Below the pieces are notes generated by a model, which saw nothing but the letters and a program-made list of their open reading frames with translations, made no database searches and was not told the DNA's origin. Position numbers and translations under genes: made by a program. From Clostridia bacterium (lineage in GTDB: Bacteria; Bacillota; Clostridia; Oscillospirales; CAG-272): 64,000 nt of DNA. The DNA lies in contig JAFUQU010000014.1 of NCBI GenBank assembly GCA_017472255.1, positions 357,845 through 421,844 on the forward strand, read 5' to 3'. Below are positions 78 through 55,702 of the stretch, piece by piece (the first letter of the stretch is position 1; each line of letters starts with the position of its first letter).

Positions 78-124
78 ATAAACATCAGATTTTTTAGTCT
101 GTATTCACTAAAGCATAGATATTA

Positions 125-193
125 ATGAACAAAGACGTTCATCCAAGGTTTCACGCATCCGTGTGTGGCTTTTGATGAGCGTCTTTCTGTTTT
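125..193 (+). promoter_or_regulatory. Leader attenuator: hexaloop hairpin (125-142) overlapping a 13-bp terminator stem (131-143 / 174-186) plus U-tract
   Basis: atgaac-AAAGAC-gttcat hairpin. AAAGACGTTCATC pairs with GATGAGCGTCTTT (one G-U), then CTGTTTTC. RBS AGGGGG 195-200 and ATG 209 follow. Confidence 0.5.
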
Positions 194-208
194 CAGGGGG
201 TAAATATT

Positions 209-1309
209 ATGTTAAAAGAAGGTTTCAACGGATACCGCATCCCTGCCGGATGTGCCATATCCGGCATGATTTCCAAGAGCGGCAGGCGGATTTCCGGCGA
301 GGATATCATCAAGAGCATTGCTGTGATGCACGATCGCTCCAACGGTCTGGGCGGCGGCTTCGCCGGCTACGGCATCTATCCCGAATACAAGGATCTGTAT
401 GCGTTCCATGTGTTTTACAACGATCTTAAATGCCGAGAGGAGTGCGAGCAGTTCCTCGAACGCCATTTCGATATCGTCAACCTGTCTAAGATTCCCACCC
501 GCAAGGTGAAGGAAATCACCGATGAACCGCTGATCTGGCGCTACTTCGTCGATCCGCTGCACACCAAGCTGGTAGAGAGTCAGCTGGAGCCGGATGAGTT
601 CGTTGTACGCTGTGTGATGCGCATTAATACCGAGATCGACGGCGCGTACATATTCTCCAGCGGCAAGAACATGGGTGTCTTCAAGGCTGTCGGTTATCCT
701 GAAGATGTGGGCGCTTTCTACCGTCTGGATGAATACGATGGCTACAGCTGGACAGCCCACGGACGTTATCCCACCAATACACCCGGCTGGTGGGGTGGCG
801 CACATCCCTTCGCCATGCTGGACTACTCCATCGTCCACAACGGCGAAATTTCGTCCTACGACGCAAACCGCCGCTTCATCGAAATGTTCGGCTACAAATG
901 CAACCTGCTCACCGACACCGAGGTCATCACCTATATCATCGATTACCTCTGCCGCAAGGAAAAGCTGTCGCTGGAGGAAATGGCCAGCGTCATCGCCGCT
1001 CCCTTCTGGTCAACCATCGAAACATTGCCCGCAGAGGAGCGGGAACGGCTTACTTATCTGCGCACCGCCTTCTCCAGCCTGCTGATTACCGGTCCGTTTT
1101 CCATTATACTGGGCTTCAACGGCGGTCTGATGGCGCTGAACGACCGACTGAAGCTGCGGTCGATGGTCGTGGGCGAAAAGGATGACATGGTATATCTGGC
1201 CAGCGAGGAATCGGCCATCCGCGTGATCGCGCCGGAGCTTGATAAAATTTGGTCGCCCGAGGGCGGCGAACCGGTCATCGTTACGCTGGACAAGGACGCG
1301 CAGCACTGA
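209..1309 (+). CDS. Glutamate synthase glutamine-amidotransferase subunit (class II Ntn GATase, archaeal-type GltB domain 1)
   Basis: GCAISGM catalytic Cys context after a ~14-aa N-terminal propeptide; GOGAT domain-1 similarity; first gene of a split gltB operon; RBS GGGGG. Confidence 0.8.
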   Translation: MLKEGFNGYRIPAGCAISGMISKSGRRISGEDIIKSIAVMHDRSNGLGGGFAGYGIYPEYKDLYAFHVFYNDLKCREECEQFLERHFDIVNLSKIPTRKVKEITDEPLIWRYFVDPLHTKLVESQLEPDEFVVRCVMRINTEIDGAYIFSSGKNMGVFKAVGYPEDVGAFYRLDEYDGYSWTAHGRYPTNTPGWWGGAHPFAMLDYSIVHNGEISSYDANRRFIEMFGYKCNLLTDTEVITYIIDYLCRKEKLSLEEMASVIAAPFWSTIETLPAEERERLTYLRTAFSSLLITGPFSIILGFNGGLMALNDRLKLRSMVVGEKDDMVYLASEESAIRVIAPELDKIWSPEGGEPVIVTLDKDAQH

Positions 1310-1339
1310 GCTGCTGAATTGATATGGGGGTAAATTAAA

Positions 1340-2845
1340 ATGCCGATAGATTTTCTGTATCCTGATTATGAAGTAATCCGCAACCCGGGTCGCTGCATCA
1401 CCTGCCGCGCCTGCGAACGCCAGTGCGCCAACGAGGTGCATCGCTTCGATCCCGACGCGGGCGTGATGATTTCCGACGAATCGAAGTGCGTCAACTGCCA
1501 CCGCTGCGTGTCGCTCTGCCCGACCCGCGCGCTCAAAATTATCAAAACCGATCATACCTTCAAGGACAACGCAAACTGGAGCGGCGAGGTCATCAAGGAG
1601 GTTTACCGTCAGGCGGGAAGCGGCGGCGTGCTGCTCTCGTCCATGGGCAATCCGAAGCCCTATCCGATCTACTGGGATAAGATTCTCATCAACGCTTCCC
1701 AAGTTACCAACCCGCCCATCGACCCGCTTCGCGAGCCTATGGAGACCCGCGTTTCCCTTGGTCGCAAGCCCGAAGGCATCGAGCGGGACGCCGACGGCAA
1801 GCTGGTGAACAACCTGGCGCCCCAGCTTAATCTGTCACTTCCGGTGATGTTCTCCGCCATGTCCTACGGCTCCATCAGCTACAACGCTCACGAGAGTCTG
1901 GCGCGCGCCGCAACCAAGCTGGGCACCTACTACAACACCGGTGAAGGCGGTCTGCATGAGGATTTCTACAAGTACAGTCCGAACACCATCGTTCAGGTAG
2001 CGTCGGGACGATTCGGCGTCCACAAGGATTATCTGGAAGCCGCAGCCGCCATCGAAATCAAGATGGGTCAGGGTGCAAAGCCCGGTATCGGCGGTCATCT
2101 GCCTGGCGCGAAGATTGTGGGCGATGTTTCCCGCACACGCATGATTCCCGAAGGCTCGGACGCCATCTCTCCCGCACCGCACCACGATATTTATTCCATC
2201 GAGGATCTGCGGCAGCTGGTATTTTCGCTCAAAGAAGCTACCGAATATAAGAAGCCGGTGATCGTGAAGATCGCCGCTGTCCACAACGTGGCCGCCATTG
2301 CGTCGGGTATTGCCCGCAGCGGCGCGGATATTATCGCCATCGACGGCTACCGGGGCGGTACCGGCGCGGCGCCCACTCGCATTCGCGACAACGTGGGTAT
2401 CCCGATTGAGCTTGCGCTGGCCAGCGTGGATCAGCGTCTGCGTGACGAAGGCATTCGCGGGCGGGTATCGCTGGTGGTCGGCGGTTCGATTCGATCCAGC
2501 GCCGATGTGGTGAAAGCCATTGCTTTGGGCGCGGATGCTTGCTACATCGGTACGGCATCGCTGCTGGCACTGGGCTGCCACCTCTGCCGTTCCTGCCACA
2601 GCGGCAAGTGCAACTGGGGGATTGCTACCCAGCGTCCTGACCTGGTTAAGCGTCTGAACCCCGAAATGGGTGCGGCTCGTCTGGTCAACCTGCTGACCGC
2701 GTGGGATCATGAAATCAAGGAAATGATGGGCGGCATGGGCATTAACTCCATTGAAGCCCTGAAAGGCAACCGCCTGATGCTGCGGGGTGTGGGTCTGAAC
2801 GAAAAAGAGCTGGAAATCCTCGGCATCAAGCACGCCGGCGAATAA
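1340..2845 (+). CDS. Glutamate synthase FMN-binding subunit (GltB domain 2) with N-terminal 2x[4Fe-4S] ferredoxin domain
   Basis: CxxCxxCxxxCP twice at N-terminus; FMN/TIM-barrel GOGAT central-domain motifs (GTGAAP, CHLCRSC). Confidence 0.85.
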   Translation: MPIDFLYPDYEVIRNPGRCITCRACERQCANEVHRFDPDAGVMISDESKCVNCHRCVSLCPTRALKIIKTDHTFKDNANWSGEVIKEVYRQAGSGGVLLSSMGNPKPYPIYWDKILINASQVTNPPIDPLREPMETRVSLGRKPEGIERDADGKLVNNLAPQLNLSLPVMFSAMSYGSISYNAHESLARAATKLGTYYNTGEGGLHEDFYKYSPNTIVQVASGRFGVHKDYLEAAAAIEIKMGQGAKPGIGGHLPGAKIVGDVSRTRMIPEGSDAISPAPHHDIYSIEDLRQLVFSLKEATEYKKPVIVKIAAVHNVAAIASGIARSGADIIAIDGYRGGTGAAPTRIRDNVGIPIELALASVDQRLRDEGIRGRVSLVVGGSIRSSADVVKAIALGADACYIGTASLLALGCHLCRSCHSGKCNWGIATQRPDLVKRLNPEMGAARLVNLLTAWDHEIKEMMGGMGINSIEALKGNRLMLRGVGLNEKELEILGIKHAGE

Positions 2846-2870
2846 GCTCTGATAGATTAGGGAGTATAGC

Positions 2871-3299
2871 ATGAAACGAGTATATGTGAATGAAAAATGG
2901 TGTCTGGGTTGTCACCTCTGCGAATATTACTGCGCTTTTGCCAATTCGGGCGAAATCGACATGGTGAAAGCCCTGAAGGGTGTTACCCTCAATCCCCGCA
3001 TCCGGGTGGAGGGAGACAACAACATCAGCTTCGCCGTCAGCTGCCGTCACTGTACCGATCCGCTCTGCGTGAAAAGCTGCATTGCGGGCGCGTTATCGAA
3101 AACGGACGGCGTAATCTGCATCGATCAGACCAAGTGCGTGGGATGTTATACCTGTGTGGCAGCTTGTCCCTATGGTGCGATCATGCCGGGCGATAACGGC
3201 GTGATGCAGAAATGCGCCCTGTGTCTGGACAATGCTTCCGGCAGCCCGGCCTGCGTGAAGGGATGTCCCAACAAAGCCATTGTTTTCGAGGAGAGATGA
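2871..3299 (+). CDS. 4Fe-4S dicluster ferredoxin-domain protein
   Basis: Several CxxCxxCxxxCP motifs in 142 aa; sits inside the GOGAT operon. Confidence 0.75.
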   Translation: MKRVYVNEKWCLGCHLCEYYCAFANSGEIDMVKALKGVTLNPRIRVEGDNNISFAVSCRHCTDPLCVKSCIAGALSKTDGVICIDQTKCVGCYTCVAACPYGAIMPGDNGVMQKCALCLDNASGSPACVKGCPNKAIVFEER

Positions 3300-3302
3300 G
3301 CT

Positions 3303-4538
3303 ATGACCGACCATTATGTTATTATCGGAAATTCGGCGGCCGCTGTGGGCTGCATCGAGGGCATCCGTGCCACGGATAAGCAGGGCAGGATTACGCTGAT
3401 TTCCGACGAACCGTATCATACCTATTCCCGCCCGCTGATCTCCTACCTGCTGTGGGGAAAGACCAGCGAGGAACGCATGAAATACCGCCCGGACGATTTT
3501 TATGAAAAGAATGGTGTCAGGACTTTGCTGGGACATCGTGCTCTGGCCATCGACAACGTGATGAAGCGCGTTACGCTGGACGATGGGGAGCAGATTCCCT
3601 ACGAGAAGCTGCTGGTGGCGACCGGCTCCAAGCCCTTTGTGCCGCCGATGAACGGTCTTGACCTTGTGACAAAGAAGTTCAGCTTCATGAAGCTGGATGA
3701 CGCCCACGCGCTGGCCGATGCGCTGACTGCCGATGCCCGGGTGCTGGTTATCGGCGCAGGTCTGATCGGTCTGAAATGCGTGGAGGGCATCAAGGATCGC
3801 TGCGGTCAGATTACGGTGGTAGACCTCGCGCCCCGTATTCTGCCCAGTATTCTGGATGAAAACGGCTCCGCTCTGGTGCAGAAATTCCTTGAGGGGAAGG
3901 GCATACGCTTTATCCTTTCGGACAGCGTTGACAGCTTTGAAGCCAACGCGGCCACGCTGAAAAGCGGCAGAAAGCTGGATTTCGACGTGCTGGTGCTGGC
4001 AGTGGGCGTCCGCCCGAACACCGAGCTGGTGTCGGCGGCAGGCGGCGAAGTGAATCGCGGCATCGTGACCAACCTGCGCTGCGAGACGACGCTGGACGAT
4101 GTGTATGCCGCCGGTGACTGTGCGCTTTCCCATGATATCACGCTGGATCAGGATCGCATTCTGGCGCTGCTGCCCAACGCTTATATGCAGGGTTACGCGG
4201 CCGGTGTGAACATGGCGGGCGGCGACGCGAAGTGGGATCGCGCCATGGCGATGAATGCCATCGGTTTCTTCGGTCTGCATATTATCACCGCCGGAAGCTA
4301 TACAGGCCATGTTTATGAAAAGAGCACCGAGGACAGCTACAAGAAGCTGTTCTATCAGGACAACAAATTAAAGGGTTTTATTTTGATCGGCGATGTGATG
4401 CGCGCCGGAATTTATACGTCGCTCATCCGTGAGGAGACGCCGCTTGATACGGTGGACTTTGAGCTGATCTGCGAAAAGCCGCAGCTGATGGCATTCACGC
4501 GGCATGAACGTGCGAAACAATTGAGCACGTCGCATTGA
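3303..4538 (+). CDS. FAD/NAD(P)-binding pyridine nucleotide-disulfide oxidoreductase (GltD-like electron donor subunit)
   Basis: N-terminal GNSAAAVG dinucleotide fold and a second Rossmann fold (VIGAGLIGLKC); operon context. Confidence 0.75.
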   Translation: MTDHYVIIGNSAAAVGCIEGIRATDKQGRITLISDEPYHTYSRPLISYLLWGKTSEERMKYRPDDFYEKNGVRTLLGHRALAIDNVMKRVTLDDGEQIPYEKLLVATGSKPFVPPMNGLDLVTKKFSFMKLDDAHALADALTADARVLVIGAGLIGLKCVEGIKDRCGQITVVDLAPRILPSILDENGSALVQKFLEGKGIRFILSDSVDSFEANAATLKSGRKLDFDVLVLAVGVRPNTELVSAAGGEVNRGIVTNLRCETTLDDVYAAGDCALSHDITLDQDRILALLPNAYMQGYAAGVNMAGGDAKWDRAMAMNAIGFFGLHIITAGSYTGHVYEKSTEDSYKKLFYQDNKLKGFILIGDVMRAGIYTSLIREETPLDTVDFELICEKPQLMAFTRHERAKQLSTSH

Positions 4539-4559
4539 ATCATAACGGGGGTAACAAAA

Positions 4560-5288
4560 ATGGCATATACAATCAACGCCGGAACTACATATTATAAAGA
4601 AATCAACGAGGCCGTCCGAAAGTCGGGAGAACAGGAGATTGTCATCGACAACTGTATCGGACAGCGTTACATCGGCTGCTCTCAGAGCGGATGCAAAATC
4701 ACTGTCAACGGCACGCCGGGCAATGCGCTGGGCGCTTACCTGAACGGCGCGACGCTGGTCATCCACGGCAACGCACAGGACGCTACAGGCGATACCATGA
4801 ACGACGGTGCGATTATCATCGACGGTTCGTCGGGTGACGCTACCGGCTACGCCATGCGCGGCGGCGCGATCTATGTCCGCGGCGACGTGGGCTATCGGGC
4901 AGGAATCCACATGAAAGCCTACAAGGAGAAATTACCTGTTCTCGTTGTCGGCGGAAAAGCGGGCAGCTTCCTCGGCGAGTACCAGGCGGGCGGCAAGATT
5001 GTCGTGCTGGGACTGGGCTGCGAGGATGAGGTTCCTGTGGGAGATTTCTGCGGCACGGGTATGCACGGCGGCAAAATGTATCTGCGGGCGAAGAAAGCGC
5101 CCCGCGATCTTCCGCCGCAGGTGGTAGTCACCGAAGCGACTCACGAGGACATGGCTGAGATCATGCCCTATATCGACAGCTACTGCCGTTATTTCGGCGT
5201 TGAACACACCGAGATTCTGCCGCACAAATTCTATGTTCTCACGCCGGATACAAAAAATCCGTACAAACAGCTTTACGTGAACAACTGA
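4560..5288 (+). CDS. Glutamate synthase GXGXG-domain subunit (GltB domain 3)
   Basis: Repeated G-x-G-x-G beta-helix motifs (GDTMNDGAIIIDG, GGAIYVRG, GKIVVLGLG); ~240 aa, typical of archaeal-type GltB C-terminal subunits. Confidence 0.8.
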   Translation: MAYTINAGTTYYKEINEAVRKSGEQEIVIDNCIGQRYIGCSQSGCKITVNGTPGNALGAYLNGATLVIHGNAQDATGDTMNDGAIIIDGSSGDATGYAMRGGAIYVRGDVGYRAGIHMKAYKEKLPVLVVGGKAGSFLGEYQAGGKIVVLGLGCEDEVPVGDFCGTGMHGGKMYLRAKKAPRDLPPQVVVTEATHEDMAEIMPYIDSYCRYFGVEHTEILPHKFYVLTPDTKNPYKQLYVNN

Positions 5289-5291
5289 TTG

Positions 5292-5300
5292 TGGTATAAT
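5292..5300 (+). promoter_or_regulatory. Extended -10 promoter element (TGgTATAAT) just downstream of the gltB-operon stop codon
   Basis: TG-n-TATAAT at 5292-5300; possible glnA promoter. Confidence 0.4.
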
Positions 5301-5302
5301 AT

Positions 5303-5335
5303 AAGCAAGGGAATCCATTTCCCTTGCTTTTCCCA
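5303..5335 (+). terminator. 11-bp stem-loop + short U-tract between GOGAT operon and glnA
   Basis: aagcaagggaa / ttcccttgctt perfect stem, loop tccat, followed by TTTT-CCC. Confidence 0.45.
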
Positions 5336-5362
5336 ATTCACATATACAATGGAGGTTTCCAT

Positions 5363-6643
5363 ATGGATTATACGAAATCAGAAGTTATGAGTTTTGTGTC
5401 GGAGAACGACGTGAAATTCATCCGTCTCGCCTTCTGTGATATTACCGGTGCGCAGAAGAACATTGCCGTCATGGCCAGTGAGCTGCCCCGCGCCTTCGAG
5501 GAAGGCATTATGGTGGACGGCGCCGCTATTCCCGGCTTTGCGGGGGTGGAGCATTCCGATCTGATGCTGCACCCCGATCCGGCTACGCTTGCGGTGCTGC
5601 CATGGCGTCCCTCCCACGGACGTGTGGTGCGTATGTACTGCGACGTGACCTATCCGGACGGACGGCAGTTTGAATGCGACAACCGCCATATCGTCCGAAC
5701 CGCCGAAGCCGCGCTGCTGTCGGCAGGCTATACCTGCAAAATCGGCTCGGAGTGCGAGTTTTATCTTTTCAACACCGACGAGAAGGGTTCGCCCACGCTG
5801 GAGCCTTGCGATCAGGCTGGCTACATGGATGTTGCGCCGCTGGATCGGGGCGAAAACGTTCGCCGCAGTGTCTGTCTGACGCTGGAGGAAATGGGCATCA
5901 AGCCTGAAAGCTCTCATCACGAACAGGGACCGGGACAGAACGAGGTGGACTTTATGTACGCTTCTCCGCTTGTTACCTGCGATAATACCACCACCTTCCG
6001 CGCGGTGGTCAAGACGGCGGCGGCGCAGAACGGATTCTTTGCCAGCTTTCTGCCGAAGCCGCTGCCGGATTTCAGCGGCAGCGGTCAGCATCTGAATATT
6101 TCGGTGTACAAAAACGGCATTGATCTGTTCGGAAACAGCTTTGCCGGGGATCGCAGAATTGCCGACAGCTTTATGGCGGGCATTCTGACGCATATTCGGG
6201 AGCTGACGGTATTCCTCAATCCGATTCCCAATTCCTATGAGCGCTTTGGCGTTTTCGAAGCGCCCCAATACGTGTCCTGGTCGGTAGGCAATCGTTCCCA
6301 GCTGGTGCGCATTCCCGAATGCCGGGGCAATGGAGCGCGGATGGAGCTGCGTTCCGCCGACTGTGCGATGAACCCCTATCTGGGTGTGGCGCTGCTGATT
6401 TACGCCGGATTAGATGGCATCAAGCGGGAGCTTCCCCTGCAGCCTGCGGACAATCGCGATTTGTTCAGCACTGTCGATTCATCGCTGCCCACGCTGCCGA
6501 TGTCCCTGAGCGAAGCCATTGCGGTGGCCGAGGACAGCGAATTTCTGCGCGGCTGTCTGCCCGCAAAGCTGCTGGAGAATTATCTGGCGCTGAAGCGGTC
6601 GGAGACGGCGCTTGATGTGAAGGCCTATTTCCCGAAGATATAA
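5363..6643 (+). CDS. glnA: Glutamine synthetase type I
   Basis: GS beta-grasp N-domain (FIRLAFCDITG) and catalytic domain motifs; RBS GGAGG 8 nt upstream; start moved to ATG 5363 from the longer track ORF. Confidence 0.9.
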   Translation: MDYTKSEVMSFVSENDVKFIRLAFCDITGAQKNIAVMASELPRAFEEGIMVDGAAIPGFAGVEHSDLMLHPDPATLAVLPWRPSHGRVVRMYCDVTYPDGRQFECDNRHIVRTAEAALLSAGYTCKIGSECEFYLFNTDEKGSPTLEPCDQAGYMDVAPLDRGENVRRSVCLTLEEMGIKPESSHHEQGPGQNEVDFMYASPLVTCDNTTTFRAVVKTAAAQNGFFASFLPKPLPDFSGSGQHLNISVYKNGIDLFGNSFAGDRRIADSFMAGILTHIRELTVFLNPIPNSYERFGVFEAPQYVSWSVGNRSQLVRIPECRGNGARMELRSADCAMNPYLGVALLIYAGLDGIKRELPLQPADNRDLFSTVDSSLPTLPMSLSEAIAVAEDSEFLRGCLPAKLLENYLALKRSETALDVKAYFPKI

Positions 6644-6656
6644 TAACGGGGGTTGT

Positions 6657-7226
6657 ATGGACAGAATTCTGATCGCAGCCAGTGGAGACAAGGGTGCGGG
6701 CTATATCAGCGAGCTGCTGGATCCATCGGGCGACGTAATGTACGACATTGCGCGCAGCGGTGGCGAGGCCCGACGGATGCTGGGGGCGGACAATTACGAC
6801 ATTTTGATTGTGAATGCGCCCCTGTCTGATGAATTTGGCAATGATCTGGCTGCTGACACGGCGGATACATACGGTGTAGGTGTGATTATACTGGTAAAGG
6901 CGGAAATAGCGGACGAGGTGGCTGACAGGCTGGAGCCTTACGGTGTTTTCGTAGTACAGAAGCCGCTGAGCCGGGCGCTGTTCTATCAGGCGCTGAAGCT
7001 GCTTCATGCTTCCAGACGGCGGATTCTGGGATTGAAAACCGAGAATCTGAATCTTCAGGCAAAGATGGAGGAGGTACGCTTGATTTCCCGCGCCAAGTGT
7101 GCGTTGATACAGTACCTGAACATGACTGAACCGCAGGCGCATCGTTACATTGAGAAGCAGGCGATGGATATGCGTGTGACCCGTCGCGAAATCGCCGAGG
7201 GAATTATCAAAACCTACGAAACGTAG
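6657..7226 (+). CDS. ANTAR-domain antiterminator with pseudo-receiver domain (AmiR/NasT family)
   Basis: C-terminal ANTAR helix pattern (RLISRAKCALIQYLNMTEPQAHRYIEKQAMDMRV); N-terminal receiver-like fold lacking the acidic pocket; directly downstream of glnA. Confidence 0.75.
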   Translation: MDRILIAASGDKGAGYISELLDPSGDVMYDIARSGGEARRMLGADNYDILIVNAPLSDEFGNDLAADTADTYGVGVIILVKAEIADEVADRLEPYGVFVVQKPLSRALFYQALKLLHASRRRILGLKTENLNLQAKMEEVRLISRAKCALIQYLNMTEPQAHRYIEKQAMDMRVTRREIAEGIIKTYET

Positions 7227-7287
7227 AAGGAGCTGCTGCACCTCCGTGCAGCAGCTCGCTCTGTCAATGAAAAGAATGGATATCCGC

Positions 7288-8619
7288 TTATCGCAGCAGG
7301 AGCGCGGCGGCAAGCTGAACGGCTTCGGCGCGGGTCAGGGGCGCGTAGGCGTTGAGAACGCCGTCGGAACCGCGCATAATGCCCGCTTCCATCAGACCGA
7401 ACATTGCGGAGCGTGCCCATGCGGGGATGCTTTCCGCGTCCGCGGGGGCGCTGACGCTCAGAGTATCCGAACCGCGGATGCCGGTGATTCTGGAGAGGAT
7501 GACGGCTGCTTCACAGCGGGTGATCTGATTGTTGGGATAGAAGCGCAGACCGTCCTCCGCCTCCACGCCGCTGATGATGCCGATGGCGTCGGCAGCGGCT
7601 ACGCTGCCTTTATAGGCTTCGGGGATATCGGCGTCATCAGCGAAGCCGGTATTCAATGTGGAGAAGCCGGTATATCCGGCGGCGTTCATGACCAGCGACA
7701 GGAATTCAGCCCGGCTGATACCCTCGTTTGGGTAGAAGTTGGCTGTGCCCTCCACGCCGCCTGCTGTTTCGACGGTCAGCGCCATGCCGGCTTGTTCCAG
7801 CACGCCACTGCGCAGGCAGGTAATCAAAGCGCTTTCTGCCCAGTGACCGTCCATATCGGCGATAACCTCGCCAGCTTCGGGCATATCCACGCGCAGACGG
7901 ACTTTCAGCGTATTGGAGCGTCCGCCGTAAAAGTCAACGGCGCGCACCTCAAAGCTGTCAACGCCCTCGTAATCGTCGAGGGGCGTGTAAACGTAGTAGC
8001 CGCGCTCACGGTCGGTGAGGGTTACGCTGCCGTGGGCAGGCTGAGAAACCAGCTCAAAGCGCACGCTGTCGCCGTCCGGGTCTGCCATTTCGATGCTGCC
8101 CGAGCAGGCTACGCCCGAGTAAGCAAAGACTTCTGCGGCTGATTGGGTGAGGATGGGGGCGCTGTTCACGTAAGTCAGGGCATACAGCGCACATTCATAG
8201 CTGACGCCGCTGCCGGTGGTGAAGCCGAAGGAAGTATCCAGCTCGTCACTGCCGTAGGGGACGAAGCGCAGGGAGGACAGGTTCTTTTTATTGATGGTCT
8301 GTCCTACGGCTACGTCCTGGCTGCCGAGGCGGAGCACGCCCAGCTCACGGTCGGGCAGGGAAGTGATTGTGATTCTGCTCACCGATTCCACGCCCAGCGC
8401 TTCGGCGAAATCGTCGGCGGTAAAGCTGATATCGGTGTTGGCGAGACCGGTTTTGACCATCGGTTCGTCGGCGGCGATGATGGCCAGCGCGGGTGAAAGG
8501 GGAGCGTCCGCTGCCAGTGCCGGGATGGTGAGTGATACAGCCAGCAGGGCGGCGGTAATGGGGATTATGTGTTTCATTGAAGTTACCTCCGTTTGGGATA
8601 TAGGATGATGCTGCACCAC
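7288..8619 (-). CDS. Cell-surface protein with signal peptide, Ig/cadherin-like region and three C-terminal SLH domains
   Basis: N-terminal signal peptide (AALLAVSLTIPALA); three SLH repeats (FYPNEGISRAEF, FYPNNQITRCEAAVIL, LTRAEAVQLAA). Confidence 0.75.
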   Translation of the reverse strand: MVQHHPISQTEVTSMKHIIPITAALLAVSLTIPALAADAPLSPALAIIAADEPMVKTGLANTDISFTADDFAEALGVESVSRITITSLPDRELGVLRLGSQDVAVGQTINKKNLSSLRFVPYGSDELDTSFGFTTGSGVSYECALYALTYVNSAPILTQSAAEVFAYSGVACSGSIEMADPDGDSVRFELVSQPAHGSVTLTDRERGYYVYTPLDDYEGVDSFEVRAVDFYGGRSNTLKVRLRVDMPEAGEVIADMDGHWAESALITCLRSGVLEQAGMALTVETAGGVEGTANFYPNEGISRAEFLSLVMNAAGYTGFSTLNTGFADDADIPEAYKGSVAAADAIGIISGVEAEDGLRFYPNNQITRCEAAVILSRITGIRGSDTLSVSAPADAESIPAWARSAMFGLMEAGIMRGSDGVLNAYAPLTRAEAVQLAAALLLR

Positions 8620-8699: not shown

Positions 8700-8728
8700 T
8701 TGAAATTTTAACATATTAGTGTTATAAT
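8700..8728 (+). promoter_or_regulatory. Promoter of ilvE (TTGAAA-17-TATAAT with TG extension)
   Basis: TTGAAA 8700-8705; TGT-TATAAT 8720-8728. Confidence 0.6.
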
Positions 8729-8765
8729 AATCTTTATAGAAAACATATTTCGGAGGTATACCGAC

Positions 8766-9836
8766 ATGATTGATATCAAAATTGAAAGAACGACTGCGCC
8801 TAAGGTTAAGCCCGATCCGGACAAGCTGGGCTTCGGCAACTATTTTACCGACCACATGTTCCTGATGAACTACACCGAGGGTCAGGGCTGGCATGACGCA
8901 CGCATTGTGCCCTACCAGAACTTCTCGCTGGATCCCGCGTCGATGGTATTCCATTACGCACAGGAAATTTTCGAAGGTCTGAAGGCTTACAGAACGCCTG
9001 ACGGACACGTTCAGCTTTTCCGTCCCCAGAAGAACATTCAGCGTATGAACCGCACCAACGATCGTATGTGCATCCCGCGGGTGGACGAGGAAGACGTCCT
9101 CACCGCCCTCAAGACGCTGGTTGAAGTGGACAAGGATTGGGTTCCCAGCAAGGAAGGCACGTCCCTGTACATCCGTCCCTTCATCTTTGCCACCGACGCG
9201 CATCTGGGCGTTCACGTGGCTAAGACCTACATATTCTGCATTATTCTTTCCCCCGTTGGTTCCTACTACGCAGCCGGCATCAACCCGGTGAAGATCTTCG
9301 TGGAGACCGAGTATGTGCGCGCTGTCAAGGGCGGCACCGGCTTCACCAAGTGCGGCGGCAACTACGCGGCATCCCTCATTGGTCAGAAGAAGGCTGAGGA
9401 ACTGGGCTATGCGCAGGTGCTCTGGCTGGATGGCATCGAGCACAAGTACATCGATGAAGTGGGCGCGATGAACGTCTTCTTCGTCATCGACGGTGAGGTA
9501 ATTACACCTACGCTTGAGGCTGGTTCGATTCTGCCGGGCGTTACCCGTATGTCCTGCATCGAGCTGCTCCAGAGCTGGGGTTACAAGGTTACTGAGCGCC
9601 GCCTTGCCATCGCCGAGGTGATTGAGGCTGCCAAGTCCGGTCGCCTGAACGAAGCCTTTGGCACTGGCACCGCAGCTGTTATCAGCCCCATCGGCGAGCT
9701 GAACGACAACGGCGACAAGATGATTGTAAACAATGGCGAGATCGGTCCGATCTCCCAGAAGCTGTACGACAATCTGACCGGCATCCAGTGGGGTCGCATC
9801 CCGGATGACAAGGGCTGGACTGTTCGCGTAGACTGA
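8766..9836 (+). CDS. ilvE: Branched-chain amino acid aminotransferase
   Basis: Class IV aminotransferase motifs (FGNYFTDHMF, EIFEGLKAYR, GGTGFTKCGGNYAASL); 356 aa. Confidence 0.9.
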   Translation: MIDIKIERTTAPKVKPDPDKLGFGNYFTDHMFLMNYTEGQGWHDARIVPYQNFSLDPASMVFHYAQEIFEGLKAYRTPDGHVQLFRPQKNIQRMNRTNDRMCIPRVDEEDVLTALKTLVEVDKDWVPSKEGTSLYIRPFIFATDAHLGVHVAKTYIFCIILSPVGSYYAAGINPVKIFVETEYVRAVKGGTGFTKCGGNYAASLIGQKKAEELGYAQVLWLDGIEHKYIDEVGAMNVFFVIDGEVITPTLEAGSILPGVTRMSCIELLQSWGYKVTERRLAIAEVIEAAKSGRLNEAFGTGTAAVISPIGELNDNGDKMIVNNGEIGPISQKLYDNLTGIQWGRIPDDKGWTVRVD

Positions 9837-24930: not shown

Positions 24931-25998
24931 ATGAAACAAATGAGAATTGCCATCATCGGGCAGGGACGTTCCGGTCGTGACATCCACGGCGCGTTCTTGC
25001 TGAACGACAAAAGCGAGCGCTACAAGGTCGTCGCCGTCTGCGACTGGAAGGCTGACCGCCGGGAGCGTGCCGCAAAGGACTTCGGCTGCGACGTTTACGA
25101 GGATTACCGCGAATTATTCAAGCGGGACGATATCGATCTGGTTGTCAACTCCACCTTTTCCTATGAGCATTGTCCCGTAACCCTCGATCTGCTGTCCCAC
25201 GGCTTCAACGTGCTGGTGGAAAAGCCCTTCGCCATGACCGAGGCTGACTGCAAAAAGATGATTGACACGGCTTACGAGAACAACGTGAAGCTGTTCGTTT
25301 TCCAGCAGTCCAGATTCGCGCCCTACTACACCAAAATCCGCGAAATTGTGGACAGCGGCGTTCTGGGGAAGATCGAGCAGATTTCCATCAGCTTCAGCGG
25401 ATTTGCCCGCCGCTGGGACTGGCAGTGCTCCCAGCGATTCGGCGGCGGCGGACTTTACAACACCGGACCCCATCCGCTGGATCAGGCGCTGGATCTGCTG
25501 GATTTCGATCCGCAGACAACGCTGCTTTACTCGCGGCTGGATACGCTTAACACCTACGGCGACGCGGACGATTACGCCAAACTGCTGATTACCGCGCCGG
25601 GCAAGCCGCTGATCGATTTAGAGGTCAGCAGTGCCAACGGCTATTTTAAGGATAACTATGTGATTCACGCGAAAAACGGCTCTCTGCGCGCTACGCTTCG
25701 GGAGATTCAGTACAAGTATTTCGTTCCCTTGGAGAATGTTGACCACACGCTGATTCTGGAGCCGCTCTGCCATGAAAACGGCTATCCCGCCTACTGCTCG
25801 GAAAAGCTGAACTGGCACGAGGAAACCATCAGTCTGGACGGTTCCGCCTTCGATGTGGGAACCAGCCGCTATTACGACATGGTTTACCGCTGCCTGTTCG
25901 AAGGACGCCGTCCCGAGATTGAGCCGTGGCAGTCGATGATGCAGATTCAGATTTCCGAGCAGGTTCACCGGGACAATCCGCTGACCATCAAATATTGA
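24931..25998 (+). CDS. Gfo/Idh/MocA-family NAD(P)-dependent oxidoreductase
   Basis: N-terminal Rossmann MRIAIIGQGRSGRD; EKP motif (VLVEKPFAMT); C-terminal alpha/beta domain. Confidence 0.8.
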   Translation: MKQMRIAIIGQGRSGRDIHGAFLLNDKSERYKVVAVCDWKADRRERAAKDFGCDVYEDYRELFKRDDIDLVVNSTFSYEHCPVTLDLLSHGFNVLVEKPFAMTEADCKKMIDTAYENNVKLFVFQQSRFAPYYTKIREIVDSGVLGKIEQISISFSGFARRWDWQCSQRFGGGGLYNTGPHPLDQALDLLDFDPQTTLLYSRLDTLNTYGDADDYAKLLITAPGKPLIDLEVSSANGYFKDNYVIHAKNGSLRATLREIQYKYFVPLENVDHTLILEPLCHENGYPAYCSEKLNWHEETISLDGSAFDVGTSRYYDMVYRCLFEGRRPEIEPWQSMMQIQISEQVHRDNPLTIKY

Positions 25999-50902: not shown

Positions 50903-52324
50903 TCAATTGCTTTTCGTTTTTAATTTTTCCCGCACAACCAGCCGCTTCAGCGCCTTTCCGTTAAAGGGAATCAGCGGATAAAGATAATTGCGCTTGCCGT
51001 TTACCGTTTTGTTGGTGGCGGCGAAGGTAAGATTCAGCACCAGCCCGCCGATATAGCCCCACAGTCCGAACAGCGCCGTTGTGGCCAGCAGAAGCATTCG
51101 CATGAGCTTGAACGCATAGCCCAGCTCGTAGCTGGACTGGGAAAAGTTCGCGATGGCGACGAAGGCCATGTAGACGATGACCTCCGGCACGAACCAGCCG
51201 ATCTGCACCGCGAAATCGCCCAGAATCAAACCGCCTACCACGCCGAAAGTATTGTTCAGCGAATTCGGCGTGTTCATGGACGCCAGCTTCAGCCCATCCA
51301 GCGCAAATTCGATGATGAACAGCTGGACGATGATGGGAAGATTGCATTCCGAATCCACGAAGATGAAATTCAGCCAATCGGGAACCCAGTTCGGATGGGT
51401 AATCAGCAGATACCACGTGGGAGTCAGCAGCATGGTCATCAGGAAGACGGCGTAGCGCAGCAGCCGCAGATAGGAGCCGATCAGCGGCGGAAAGTAATAA
51501 TCATCGGTTTCCTGCATGAAATCGAAGATGCAGGTGGGCAGAATCATCGCTTCCGGCGACGTGTCGCAGAGGATGATGACGCCGCCCTCCAGCAGATGAG
51601 CCGCCGCTGAATCCGGACGCTCGGTATAGCGGAATTTGGGAAAGGGATTGTACCACCGCCGTTTGATTAGACATTCGGCAAGGCTCTGCTGTCCCAGCGT
51701 CAGGGCGTCCACCTTGATCGCTTTGATTTTGGACAGCAGGGTCTGCACATACTCCTTGTCAGCTTTGCCGTCGATGTAGGCCACGACCACATCGTTTTTT
51801 GCCGTCTCGCCAACGACAATTCGTTCGAAGGTGAGCCGAGGATCGCGGATGCGGCGGCGAATGAGGGTGGAGTTCTGCTTGATTGTTTCCACGAAGCTGT
51901 CGTGGGCGCCCCGAAGAACCCGGTCGTTTTCCGACTGCTGGATGCCCCGTGTGGGATAGCTGCGCACATCGATGATGATGCCCGCGGCGCCCAGCGAATC
52001 CATGATTACGCCCATGGTGCCCGACATGACGGCGTAAACGAACTGATCGAAATCCGTAACTACCGAAACCTCGGTGTAGGGCAGATGGCGGGCGGCAAAC
52101 TGCTTTGCGTCCTGCGCGTTTTCCACCGTCTCAAGCTGTGCCAGATAGATGAACAGCCGCTCCAGAACGTCGCTTTTGACAAAGCTGTCGATGTAGTAGA
52201 AGTGCGCCGAGTGACCGCCGAAAATCTGCTCGCGGCTGATGAAATCGTAATTTTTTCCGATACCAAAAAGGGTATCGAGGGTTTTTATGTTTTTCTGATA
52301 GCTTTCGCTGAATGTCTGCGACAT
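50903..52324 (-). CDS. GerA-family spore germination protein (GerAA / SpoVAF-like), orphan
   Basis: GerA family N-terminal domain and C-terminal 4-5 TM domain; no adjacent GerAB/GerAC genes; alternative start at 52339. Confidence 0.7.
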   Translation of the reverse strand: MSQTFSESYQKNIKTLDTLFGIGKNYDFISREQIFGGHSAHFYYIDSFVKSDVLERLFIYLAQLETVENAQDAKQFAARHLPYTEVSVVTDFDQFVYAVMSGTMGVIMDSLGAAGIIIDVRSYPTRGIQQSENDRVLRGAHDSFVETIKQNSTLIRRRIRDPRLTFERIVVGETAKNDVVVAYIDGKADKEYVQTLLSKIKAIKVDALTLGQQSLAECLIKRRWYNPFPKFRYTERPDSAAAHLLEGGVIILCDTSPEAMILPTCIFDFMQETDDYYFPPLIGSYLRLLRYAVFLMTMLLTPTWYLLITHPNWVPDWLNFIFVDSECNLPIIVQLFIIEFALDGLKLASMNTPNSLNNTFGVVGGLILGDFAVQIGWFVPEVIVYMAFVAIANFSQSSYELGYAFKLMRMLLLATTALFGLWGYIGGLVLNLTFAATNKTVNGKRNYLYPLIPFNGKALKRLVVREKLKTKSN

Positions 52325-53774: not shown

Positions 53775-53869
53775 TTTCCCTGCATTTCATAAAAACTTTC
53801 GCAAAAGCCTTTATTTTGGGGGACTTTTGTGATATAATATAATGTAACGAACTTTTTTGGAGATTTACT

Positions 53870-55702
53870 ATGTGTGGATTTGTCGGCTTCACCGGGAAGC
53901 TGGAAAAGCAAAAGGAAATCCTGAATAACATGATGGCGCGGATTGTCCATCGCGGCCCTGATTCGGCGGGAGAATTCCTCGGCGAGGATGTGGCGCTGGG
54001 CTTCCGGCGTCTGAGCATCATCGACCTTGACGGCGGCTCGCAGCCCATGTACAATGAGGACGGCAGCGTAGTCATCGTTTTCAACGGTGAGATATACAAT
54101 TTTATGTCCCTTCGCGAGGAGCTTTCGGCGGCGGGACATACCTTCAGAACCCGGTCGGACACCGAAACGCTGGTGCATGGCTGGGAAGAATGGGGCGAAA
54201 AGCTCGCATCGAAGCTGCGCGGGATGTTCGCCTTCCTGCTTTACGATAAAAAGAGCGGCGTCCTTTACGGCGCCCGGGATTACTTCGGCATCAAGCCGTA
54301 CTACTACTACCGCACCGCAGAGGGAAACTACCTTTTCGGCTCGGAAATCAAGTCCTTCCTCGAGCATCCGGGCTTTGACAAGCGGCTCAACAAAAAGGCG
54401 CTGCGCCCCTATCTGACCTTCCAGTATTCGTCGCTGGACGAGACCTTCTTCGAGGGCGTGTTCAAGCTGCCTCCGGCGCATTATTTCACGCTGAAGGACG
54501 GAGCGATGACAGTCACTCGTTACTGGGACGCCGACTTCACCGAGAAGCCGGGCGACTTCGACGCATATGTCAACGACATCGACAAAACGGTCAATGAGTC
54601 CGTGGCGGCGCATAAGATCAGCGATGTGAAGGTGGGTGCGTTTCTTTCGGGCGGCGTGGATTCGTCCTATATCACCGCCTGCCTGATGCCCGACAAGACC
54701 TTCTCCGTGGGCTTCGATTACCATAAATTTAACGAAACCAACTACGCAAAGGAACTGTCTGACCGTCTGGGCATCGAAAATTACCGCAAGCTGATTACCG
54801 CCGACGAATGCTTTGACGCTTTTGCTGACATTCAGTATCATATGGACGAGCCGCAGTCCAACCCCTCCAGCGTACCGCTCTATTTTCTCGCAAAGCTTGC
54901 CAGAGAGCAGGTTACAGTGGTGCTGTCCGGCGAGGGCGCGGATGAAATCTATGCCGGCTACGAGTGGTACGACGAGACGCCCATGATGCAGAAATACAAG
55001 AAAATCCCGCAGCCCCTGCGTATCGCGGCGGCGGGTGTGGCAAAGCGGCTGCCCTACTTTAAGGGACACGATTTCATCATCAAGTCCAGCGGACGCCCGG
55101 AGGATTACTTCATCGGTCAGGCTATGGTCTGGGCGGAGAAGGACGCGCTTCGGGTGCTCAAGCCCGCGTTTCGCTGCGGACCTTCCACGAAGGAGGTCAC
55201 GGCGCCGATTTATGCCCGGGTGAAGGACAAATCGGAGCTTGACAAGAAGCAGTACCTCGACCTGAATCTCTGGCTGCCGGGGGATATTCTGCTCAAAGCC
55301 GACAAAATGAGCATGGCAAGCTCGCTGGAGCTTCGCGTGCCCTTCCTCGACCGTGTGGTCATGGAACAGGCGCAGGCGCTGCCTCACGAGTACAAGATCA
55401 ACGGCAAAAATACCAAGTACATCTTCCGCAAGGCCGCCAACAAAACCCTCCCCGACGAGTGGGCTGACCGCAAGAAGATGGGCTTCCCCGTGCCCATCCG
55501 CTACTGGCTGAAGGAAGAAAAATATTACAACATCGTCAAAGGCTATTTCACCAGCGACTATGCCGCCGAGTTCTTTGACACCGACGCGCTCGTCGCCCTG
55601 CTTGACGAGCACCGCGCCGACAAGGCCAACAACGGACGCCGCATCTGGACGGTTTTCACCTTCCTTGTCTGGTACAAACGATTCTTCATCGACGAAACAT
55701 AA
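53870..55702 (+). CDS. Asparagine synthase (glutamine-hydrolysing) family amidotransferase (AsnB / AsnH-like)
   Basis: N-terminal MCGFVGF Ntn-GATase; SGGVDSS PP-loop; 610 aa. Confidence 0.85.
   Translation: MCGFVGFTGKLEKQKEILNNMMARIVHRGPDSAGEFLGEDVALGFRRLSIIDLDGGSQPMYNEDGSVVIVFNGEIYNFMSLREELSAAGHTFRTRSDTETLVHGWEEWGEKLASKLRGMFAFLLYDKKSGVLYGARDYFGIKPYYYYRTAEGNYLFGSEIKSFLEHPGFDKRLNKKALRPYLTFQYSSLDETFFEGVFKLPPAHYFTLKDGAMTVTRYWDADFTEKPGDFDAYVNDIDKTVNESVAAHKISDVKVGAFLSGGVDSSYITACLMPDKTFSVGFDYHKFNETNYAKELSDRLGIENYRKLITADECFDAFADIQYHMDEPQSNPSSVPLYFLAKLAREQVTVVLSGEGADEIYAGYEWYDETPMMQKYKKIPQPLRIAAAGVAKRLPYFKGHDFIIKSSGRPEDYFIGQAMVWAEKDALRVLKPAFRCGPSTKEVTAPIYARVKDKSELDKKQYLDLNLWLPGDILLKADKMSMASSLELRVPFLDRVVMEQAQALPHEYKINGKNTKYIFRKAANKTLPDEWADRKKMGFPVPIRYWLKEEKYYNIVKGYFTSDYAAEFFDTDALVALLDEHRADKANNGRRIWTVFTFLVWYKRFFIDET

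Follow-up and report, generated by a model that had tools for sequence, protein, structure and literature searches.

The 64,000-nucleotide window studied here (contig JAFUQU010000014.1 of a Clostridia bacterium, assembly GCA_017472255.1) carries at its beginning a cluster of nitrogen-assimilation genes on the plus strand, preceded by a leader of roughly 125 nucleotides (nt) between the promoter and the first gene, which very probably acts as a transcription attenuator. Positions 209-5288 encode a split (archaeal-type) glutamate synthase (GOGAT) in five genes, whose Pfam domains are GATase_2 (209-1309), Glu_synthase with Fer4 (1340-2845), Fer4 (2871-3299), Pyr_redox_2 (3303-4538) and GXGXG (4560-5288), in an order that is kept in the related loci described below. 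They are followed by glnA (5363-6643), encoding a type I glutamine synthetase (GS), and then by a gene (6657-7226) for a protein of 189 amino acids, comprising a pseudo-receiver, a coiled coil and an ANTAR domain, and proposed here as the antiterminator.

The leader is served by a sigma-70-type promoter on the plus strand, whose boxes TTGACA (49-54) and TAAAAT (72-77) stand 17 nt apart and agree with the consensus at 11 of 12 positions, and the orthologous leaders possess promoters of equal strength. Transcription is predicted, from this promoter only, to start at about position 84. The minimum free energy of the leader was -40.8 kcal/mol (z -5.3), and none of 200 shuffled sequences folded equally well. 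A ribosome-binding site, GGGGG (196-200), precedes the start codon of the GATase gene (209-211).

Two structures dominate this leader. The first one is an intrinsic terminator (131-194, plus strand), composed of an interrupted rod of about 24 bp (131-186; -30.3 kcal/mol when folded alone) and of the tail CUGUUUUC (187-194). Its outer stem, 131-143 (AAAGACGUUCAUC) with 174-186 (GAUGAGCGUCUUU), contains 12 Watson-Crick pairs and one G-U pair (U138-G179), and is continued by the inner stems 145-150/167-172 and 152-156/161-165. The second one is a hairpin (125-142, plus strand; -4.3 kcal/mol alone), proposed as the binding site of the ANTAR protein, in which AUGAAC (125-130) forms six pairs with GUUCAU (137-142) and encloses the hexaloop AAAGAC (131-136), with A131 at loop position 1 and G134 at loop position 4. 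Since nucleotides 131-142 belong both to this hairpin and to the 5' arm of the terminator, the two structures are mutually exclusive. When the terminator forms, the three A's at the start of the loop are taken up by the first U's of the U-run, so that the G-C pairs at the base of the terminator proper begin with G134 (paired with C183). When the hairpin was enforced, the leader folded at -25.3 kcal/mol, compared with -37.2 kcal/mol unconstrained, and the arm beside the U-run was left unpaired. Given the respective energies of the hairpin and the terminator, termination would therefore be the default outcome, the hairpin winning only if something stabilises it.

These elements had been read from the letters in the first-pass annotation, and most of that reading held. 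The 13-bp stem followed by a U-rich tail, the alternative hairpin, whose loop carries A and G as its first and fourth bases, and the incompatibility of the two structures were all recovered by inspection and folding, and the pair was moreover conserved and covarying in relatives. The distance of 20 nt from the stem to the ribosome-binding site has to be corrected, GGGGG beginning 9 nt past the stem and the ATG at 209 lying 22 nt past it. The combination of such a hairpin with a complementary downstream arm and a U-run occurred once in the window and never in 200 simulated windows. Candidate further copies were discarded: hairpins of the RRAC-A..G..-GUYY type at 25350 (plus strand) and 43905 (minus strand) have no coupled terminator, and at 52181 a looser match falls within an open reading frame of the minus strand.

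Conservation was evaluated in 80 loci that encode a GATase subunit 73-84% identical to that of the window. They come from numerous Clostridia, mostly metagenome-assembled genomes (MAGs) of the Oscillospiraceae/Ruminococcaceae type, and also Acetivibrio, Defluviitalea, Monoglobus, Yeguia and Clostridium methylpentosum. About 70 of these loci have a hairpin RRAC-AAnGRY-GUYY ahead of the orthologous gene, and in 67 a simple check also recognised an overlapping terminator arm with a U-run. Cultured bacteria that share this leader include Yeguia hominis (L010), Acetivibrio mesophilus (L014), Clostridium methylpentosum (L075) and Intestinibacillus massiliensis (L078). In 58-61 distinct leaders, neither the A and the G at loop positions 1 and 4 nor the two pairs that close the loop, A-U and C-G, ever varied, these being the features that the search pattern demanded. 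Positions 2, 5 and 6, which it left free, were nevertheless constrained, with A at position 2 in 61/61 leaders, a purine at position 5 in 61/61 and a pyrimidine at position 6 in 57/61. With only the core ACAA.G..GT demanded, the next two pairs formed in 74 of 77 cases. The 4-bp core of the hairpin is thus universal, and its two outer pairs covary (GC/AU; AU/GC/GU), while a fifth pair is present in roughly half of the leaders and a sixth in roughly a third, the stem in the window having six.

The terminator is conserved in the same leaders as a structure. RNAalifold, applied to an unanchored alignment of 29 leaders, recovered it with a compensatory change in 14 of 19 pairs, and in the anchored alignment of the terminator 86% of the cells were paired, vs 40-57% when the partner was slid by 1-3 columns. 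Apart from the invariant hairpin bases, the positions of the terminator covary freely, and its interior is not conserved. The whole terminator is long (median 55 nt, -30 kcal/mol). Positions 3, 5 and 6 of the hairpin loop covary with the 3' arm of the terminator, so that the same nucleotides serve both structures, which is the signature of an antiterminator/terminator switch. From this comparison, the leader is very probably a conserved attenuator with an antiterminator hairpin. Two variants were noted among these loci. In L037, about 130 nt upstream of a GATase gene at 960, the hairpin is GUGAAC-UAUGGC-GUUCG, a natural loop variant with U instead of A at position 1. In L080, two complete hairpin-plus-terminator units (8713-8790 and 8856-8990) stand in tandem before the GATase gene, as serial attenuators.

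The hairpin resembles known targets of ANTAR proteins. The P1 hairpins of eut leaders collected by Ramesh et al. 2012 (Fig. S1; PMC3369931) are GUGUAC-AAUGGC-GUAUAC, GCAC-AACGGC-GUGC, ACGGUAC-AAAGGC-GUACUGU and GCAC-AAAGAC-GUGU, and induction in that study depended on A1, on G4 and on both closing pairs (Ramesh et al. 2012, PMC3369931). The hairpin of the window and of its family fits the eut P1 consensus AC-AAnG(G/A)C-GU, including the closing pairs, with A, U or C at n in the seed, and the loop AAAGAC of the window is identical to that of the Listeria monocytogenes eutV P1.

The protein encoded at 6657-7226, some 6.5 kb downstream of the leader, is in turn an ANTAR protein, with a Pfam match to ANTAR (PF03861) at E 7.6e-17 and a sub-threshold match to the receiver domain (E 0.008). 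Its best relative of solved structure is Rv1626 (1s8n; E 4.6e-13 over residues 16-187, that is 172 residues); AmiR matches at E 0.009. The phospho-acceptor Asp of Rv1626 aligns with Asn53 of the window protein, which also lacks the acidic pocket. Among 41 orthologues, this site is Asn in 38 and Asp in none, and the acidic pocket is replaced by Ser, Gly or Ala. The equivalents of the RNA-contacting residues K149, E160 and M172 of EutV (residue list in PMC8934654) are invariant in 41/41 orthologues. The ANTAR gene was present in 41 of the 80 loci and lay directly after glnA in all 41. From these features, the adjacent protein quite probably reads the leader hairpin. A motif (I/V)N(A/T/S)PLxDEFG at the former phospho-site (residues 50-61 in the window protein) is highly conserved in the orthologues from the 41 loci and could be a docking surface for a partner.

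The same element was found before other genes of nitrogen metabolism in these loci. By combining a covariance model built on eut sequences (described below) with a pattern scan, and identifying the genes by Pfam, a single hairpin with its terminator was detected ahead of GOGAT in 54 cases, the gene for type III glutamine synthetase (GSIII) in 25, ammonium-transporter/PII fusions (amt-PII) in 13, asnA in about seven, asnB in three, gdh in one, and a glnA-ANTAR pair in locus L035. Hairpins with other closing pairs showed no such association with nitrogen genes in the pattern scan of the loci. GSIII genes divergent from the GOGAT operon have ACAGC-AAAGGC-GCUGU plus a terminator behind their promoter, as in L063:8514-8555(-), L036:8468-8498(-), L080:8491-8532(-) and about 20 more loci; their closing pairs are GC/GC, like eut P2, and not AC/GU. 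The amt-PII fusion genes follow a hairpin of the ACAC-AAAGGC-GUGU type and a terminator, as in L036:6257-6297(-), L003:6389-6427(-), L022:6434-6465(-) and L021:6264-6294(-); several of these hairpins lie directly after a GSIII stop codon and would therefore act as internal attenuators within an operon. In L035, where glnA-ANTAR is detached from GOGAT, glnA possesses its own hairpin, GUGAAC-AAUGGC-GUUCAU (6624-6672, plus strand), which implies an autoregulation, judging by the sequence, and the divergent gdh gene is also preceded by a hairpin (6484-6529, minus strand). An asnB-like gene of the window (53870, in the region 53790-55702) is 34% identical to the motif-regulated asnB of L011; an extended -10 promoter of its own precedes it, no ANTAR-type hairpin was found in its short leader, and membership of the regulon therefore differs between genomes. 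The coherence of this putative regulon is the strongest indirect argument for one nitrogen-responsive factor reading all the sites.

The reading that we favour, at a probability of about 0.7, is an antitermination of the glutamate-synthase genes by a NitR-like ANTAR protein acting via a single hexaloop. RNA polymerase would start at about position 84 and, by default, the nascent leader would fold into the terminator (131-186) followed by the U-run, transcription ending before the GATase gene. When nitrogen is limiting, the NitR-like pseudo-receiver ANTAR protein (6657-7226) would bind the hairpin 125-142, recognising the closing AC/GU pairs and the hexaloop AAAGAC, in which G134 would matter most. 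The bound hairpin would withhold nucleotides 131-142, including G134 and thus the first G-C pair of the terminator base; only the apical part of the rod (145-172) would then form, 14 nt from the U-run and too far from it to terminate, and the polymerase would enter the operon. Read-through should rise in nitrogen scarcity by analogy with the description of NitR (PMC6316151). GS, as the invariable neighbour of the ANTAR gene, may be regarded, speculatively, as a candidate partner of the pseudo-receiver. The first-pass annotation had reached a similar proposal from a pseudo-receiver plus ANTAR protein encoded after glnA and an ANTAR-like hairpin. The domain assignment is now borne out by Pfam, the alignment with Rv1626 and the constant linkage to glnA, the nature of the hairpin by its fit to the published consensus down to the closing AC/GU, and the two competing structures by their conservation and covariation in relatives. 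The binding of the protein, the direction of the nitrogen response and the upstream signal are inferred.

Several observations weigh against this reading. The residue equivalent to Y164 of EutV, an aromatic that stacks on G4, which flips out in the EutV-RNA structure (PMC8934654), is always His in the 41 orthologues. No ANTAR gene was found in up to 9 kb on each side of 15 motif-bearing loci, although it may sit elsewhere in those genomes. Neither a kinase gene nor a gene for an AmiC/NasS-type binding protein was found among the neighbours of the ANTAR gene, which are glnA upstream and an opposite-strand SLH/Big_9 surface-protein gene downstream. The U-run of the window is interrupted (CUGUUUUC). 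Lastly, the tandem P1/P2 hexaloop layout of known ANTAR targets was found neither in the window nor family-wide. The loci devoid of a linked ANTAR gene, together with the absence of a second hairpin, which ANTAR antitermination is reported to require, would suit an attenuator controlled by some other RNA-binding protein, or a constitutive partial terminator. We consider this unlikely, because the hairpin agrees with the ANTAR P1 consensus at its closing pairs and at loop positions 1, 2, 4, 5 and 6, because the regulon is coherent and even includes the glnA-ANTAR pair itself in L035, and because the residues with which the ANTAR domain would contact RNA do not vary among the linked proteins.

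The number of hairpins deserves a closer discussion. ANTAR targets have been defined as two tandem hexaloop hairpins, both needed for antitermination by EutV in vivo in Enterococcus faecalis (PMC3369931, PMC8164766). The first-pass annotation had pointed out that only one canonical hexaloop hairpin is evident here, and had regarded the motif as incomplete; the observation was confirmed, and the single hairpin turned out to be the rule for the whole family and not a defect of this locus. Of the 69 leaders in which a strong promoter was recognised, 52 have 5-14 nt between the end of the -10 box and the 4-bp hairpin core, so that the predicted transcript would begin at or just before the hairpin. 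A second hexaloop hairpin of the A..G.. type was not enriched upstream (14 leaders, vs 8.4 expected from shuffled sequence, many of them overlapping the -35 or -10 boxes), nor inside the terminator (5 leaders, vs 9.6 expected from shuffled sequence), and the apical loops of the terminators displayed no preferred size and no preference for a hexaloop or for G at position 4 across the leaders. The only leader with a convincing second canonical hexaloop is L011:1647-1691 (GAAGGC-AAUGGU-GUCUUU); it is located in the apex of the terminator and not upstream, and is still not a classical P1/P2 arrangement.

In the window itself there is room for an upstream partner, since this leader is an outlier in spacing: 49 nt separate the -10 box from the hairpin core, owing to a 5' extension of about 40 nt. 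Six other relatives among the 69 leaders have at least 30 nt between these two elements, and the closest relatives (83% identical protein) lack the extension, their promoter lying 7-8 nt from the hairpin. A nearer promoter that would place the hairpin of the window at the 5' end was sought by eye, and the best candidate, with 7 of 12 matches and too close to the hairpin, was rejected in favour of the promoter at 49-77. The extension contains, on the plus strand, a 5'-proximal hairpin with a U-rich loop, CAGAUU-UUUU-AGUCUG (86-101; -4.6 kcal/mol), and a degenerate P1-like element, CUA-AAGCA-UAG (108-118).

The latter element raises the alternative that the window holds a canonical dual-hairpin target, with P1 at 108-118, an 8-nt linker and P2 at 125-142. 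The search for ANTAR targets with a covariance model, suggested by the first-pass annotation, was carried out with a model built from the seven eut seeds of the published alignment, nasF and amiE being dropped as misaligned. It aligned the leader precisely in this manner, at 107-140, which ranked first in 128 kb (both strands, filters off) with a marginal score of 16.8 bits (E about 0.02, on a rough calibration). The linker falls within the 5-12 nt range of E. faecalis (PMC3369931), and enough space for a P1 exists only in the window and in a few relatives. The match is nevertheless one-sided, most of its score coming from the P2 half, and comparable or higher scores were obtained in relatives with the "P1" half placed on -10 promoter sequence (26.9 bits in L020, 23.4 bits in L028). 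The putative P1 has a stem of 3 bp and a loop of 5 nt with G at position 3, which departs from the A1/G4 rule of the hexaloop, and reading it as the hexaloop AAAGCA leaves a U-U closing mismatch. Moreover, 108-118 is not conserved, the promoter of the closest relatives leaving no place for it. A dual-hairpin target is thus improbable at this locus.

A single hairpin would in fact agree with more recent structural work, in which the ANTAR dimer contacts one hexaloop at a time and the minimal site was redefined as a single hexaloop (Walshe et al. 2022, PMC8934654). These authors expected single sites only where no transcribing polymerase sets a time limit (PMC8934654); by contrast, the leaders described here are single-hexaloop sites within attenuators. 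Two features may compensate for the single hairpin: it is made first, at the 5' end, and the long terminator (median 55 nt) delays the synthesis of the 3' arm. On balance, the attenuator rather probably works with a single hexaloop.

The inverted repeat GAAC-N6-GTTC, lying shortly after the promoter, could also be understood as an operator at which a dimeric repressor binds the DNA. It lies 5-14 bp past the -10 box in 52 of 69 loci, a typical operator position, and compensatory changes preserve a DNA palindrome as well as an RNA stem. This reading was rejected as very improbable. The hairpin core contains 11 G-U pairs (GGAC/GTTC) and the terminator dozens, and such pairs break a DNA palindrome. 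The spacer of 6 nt is kept among the relatives and lacks symmetry. Anything from 5 to 61 nt may separate the repeat from the promoter, but its overlap with the terminator never changes. Some copies stand between genes without a visible promoter, such as one that follows the GSIII stop and precedes amt, and the loop bases covary with the 3' arm of the terminator. The search of Rfam 15, also suggested by the first-pass annotation, gave nothing relevant, with no match at gathering score across the 64-kb window and, in positions 1-300 with E up to 10, only chance-level snoRNA and ROSE matches (E above 1). A metabolite-sensing riboswitch, for instance for glutamine, would account for a terminator-containing leader upstream of nitrogen-assimilation genes, but it is hardly credible, given this Rfam result and the fact that outside the terminator only the hairpin of 14-18 nt is conserved, too little for a ligand pocket.

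Several known systems are close to the one that we favour, namely control of the leader by an ANTAR protein. The targets of the eut system (PMC3369931; PMC8934654) share with it the short stem, the A1/G4 hexaloop, the closing AC/GU of P1, the competition with the 5' arm of a terminator, an ANTAR protein encoded nearby and a theme of nitrogen metabolism. They differ in that one hairpin is present here, a P1-type hairpin that itself overlaps the terminator; in that, in most relatives, this hairpin begins within a few nt of the predicted start; in the uncommon length of the terminator (median 55 nt, -30 kcal/mol); and in that the regulator is a pseudo-receiver protein here and a phosphorylated receiver there. 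NitR of Clostridium saccharobutylicum NCP262 (glnA-nitR; Stutz et al. 2007, as cited in PMC6316151 and PMC4676874) is described as inducing GS and GOGAT by antitermination under nitrogen limitation; an antisense RNA has been reported for that glnA. This glnA-nitR arrangement, known in solventogenic clostridia, resembles our case in the regulator gene lying directly after glnA and in its targets, GS/GOGAT and other nitrogen-assimilation genes, whereas GOGAT is of the split five-gene type here and the hosts are mostly uncultured Clostridia, largely MAGs of the Oscillospiraceae/Ruminococcaceae type.

The same GOGAT-glnA-ANTAR cluster exists in Clostridium thermocellum (Clo1313_2030-2036; PMC4676874), and ANTAR sites have been predicted in other Firmicutes, ahead of the GS/GOGAT genes of Desulforudis, Carboxydothermus and Desulfotomaculum (Ramesh 2012, Table S2, Figure 9; PMC3369931). 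The latter sites serve the same genes, those of glutamine synthetase, glutamine amidotransferase and glutamate synthase, and have an ANTAR gene linked to them, but were found with a dual-hairpin model. In C. thermocellum, that dual-hairpin search reported only the ammonium transporter (PMC3369931), which fits single-hairpin GOGAT leaders having been missed. AmiR (with AmiC) and NasT (with NasS) share with the present protein the receiver-like domain, the coiled coil and the ANTAR domain and, like it, have no phospho-acceptor Asp; such an architecture points to a partner or ligand, and not to a kinase, as the source of control. They differ from it in that the gene adjacent to the window's regulator is glnA and not one of the AmiC/NasS type, and in that its closest solved relative is Rv1626 and not AmiR (E values above).

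Regarding transcription within the cluster, the first-pass annotation had described a single GOGAT operon. The order GOGAT-glnA-ANTAR stands, but the notion of one operon is too simple, since a putative internal promoter and a strong hairpin probably separate the two parts (5273-5329). A promoter-like site on the plus strand (TTTACG, a 17-nt spacer and TGgTATAAT; 5273-5300) spans the stop codon of the GXGXG gene (5288) and is followed by an 11-bp hairpin and UUUCCC (5303-5329, plus strand; z -3.9), whose loop is not ANTAR-like. This layout, TGTATAAT right after the stop and then a strong hairpin and a U-run, recurs in many related loci. The start of the glnA open reading frame as called mechanically, TTG at 5324, falls inside this hairpin, and the likely start is ATG 5363 (plus strand), behind GGAGG at 5351-5355. 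On these sequence grounds, glnA-ANTAR is probably also transcribed on its own, and a partial stop may occur behind the GOGAT genes; the separate transcription would supply the regulator before the leader terminator must be overcome. Downstream, between the ANTAR gene and the convergent SLH/Big_9 gene (7288-8619, minus strand), a perfect 12-bp inverted repeat, GAGCUGCUGCAC-CUCC-GUGCAGCAGCUC, was observed at 7229-7258, with a U-run on neither strand.

In its essentials the reading has precedents, ANTAR control of nitrogen genes, NitR beside glnA, the C. thermocellum cluster and the predicted GS/GOGAT sites being already known. We found no study of single-hairpin ANTAR attenuators or of the function of Clo1313_2030 in the literature, although an earlier description in the primary work on NitR is possible. 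The single-hexaloop, 5'-terminal form across a nitrogen regulon was not found described and has no Rfam family, and the single-hairpin layout may be viewed as a variant of the known one. A broader proposal, by analogy with GS-TnrA/GlnR in Bacillus, would be that of a regulon-wide class of one-hexaloop, 5'-end ANTAR attenuators in gut and anaerobic Clostridia, in which the pseudo-receiver would be switched by direct contact with the adjacent GS rather than by a kinase; we regard it as tentative and, as a whole, rather doubtful.

As regards its significance, this set comprises dozens of species and at least six gene families with single-hexaloop attenuators, a regulon that dual-hairpin searches would miss. 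It also allows the structural proposal of 2022, in which a single hexaloop suffices as the minimal binding unit, to be tested on natural material; that proposal left open why two hairpins are needed in vivo. Its hosts are abundant gut Clostridia, in which nitrogen control is essentially unstudied. If the class defined by one hexaloop and by contact with GS does exist, it would overturn the view of two obligatory hairpins and would make GS the nitrogen sensor in these bacteria.

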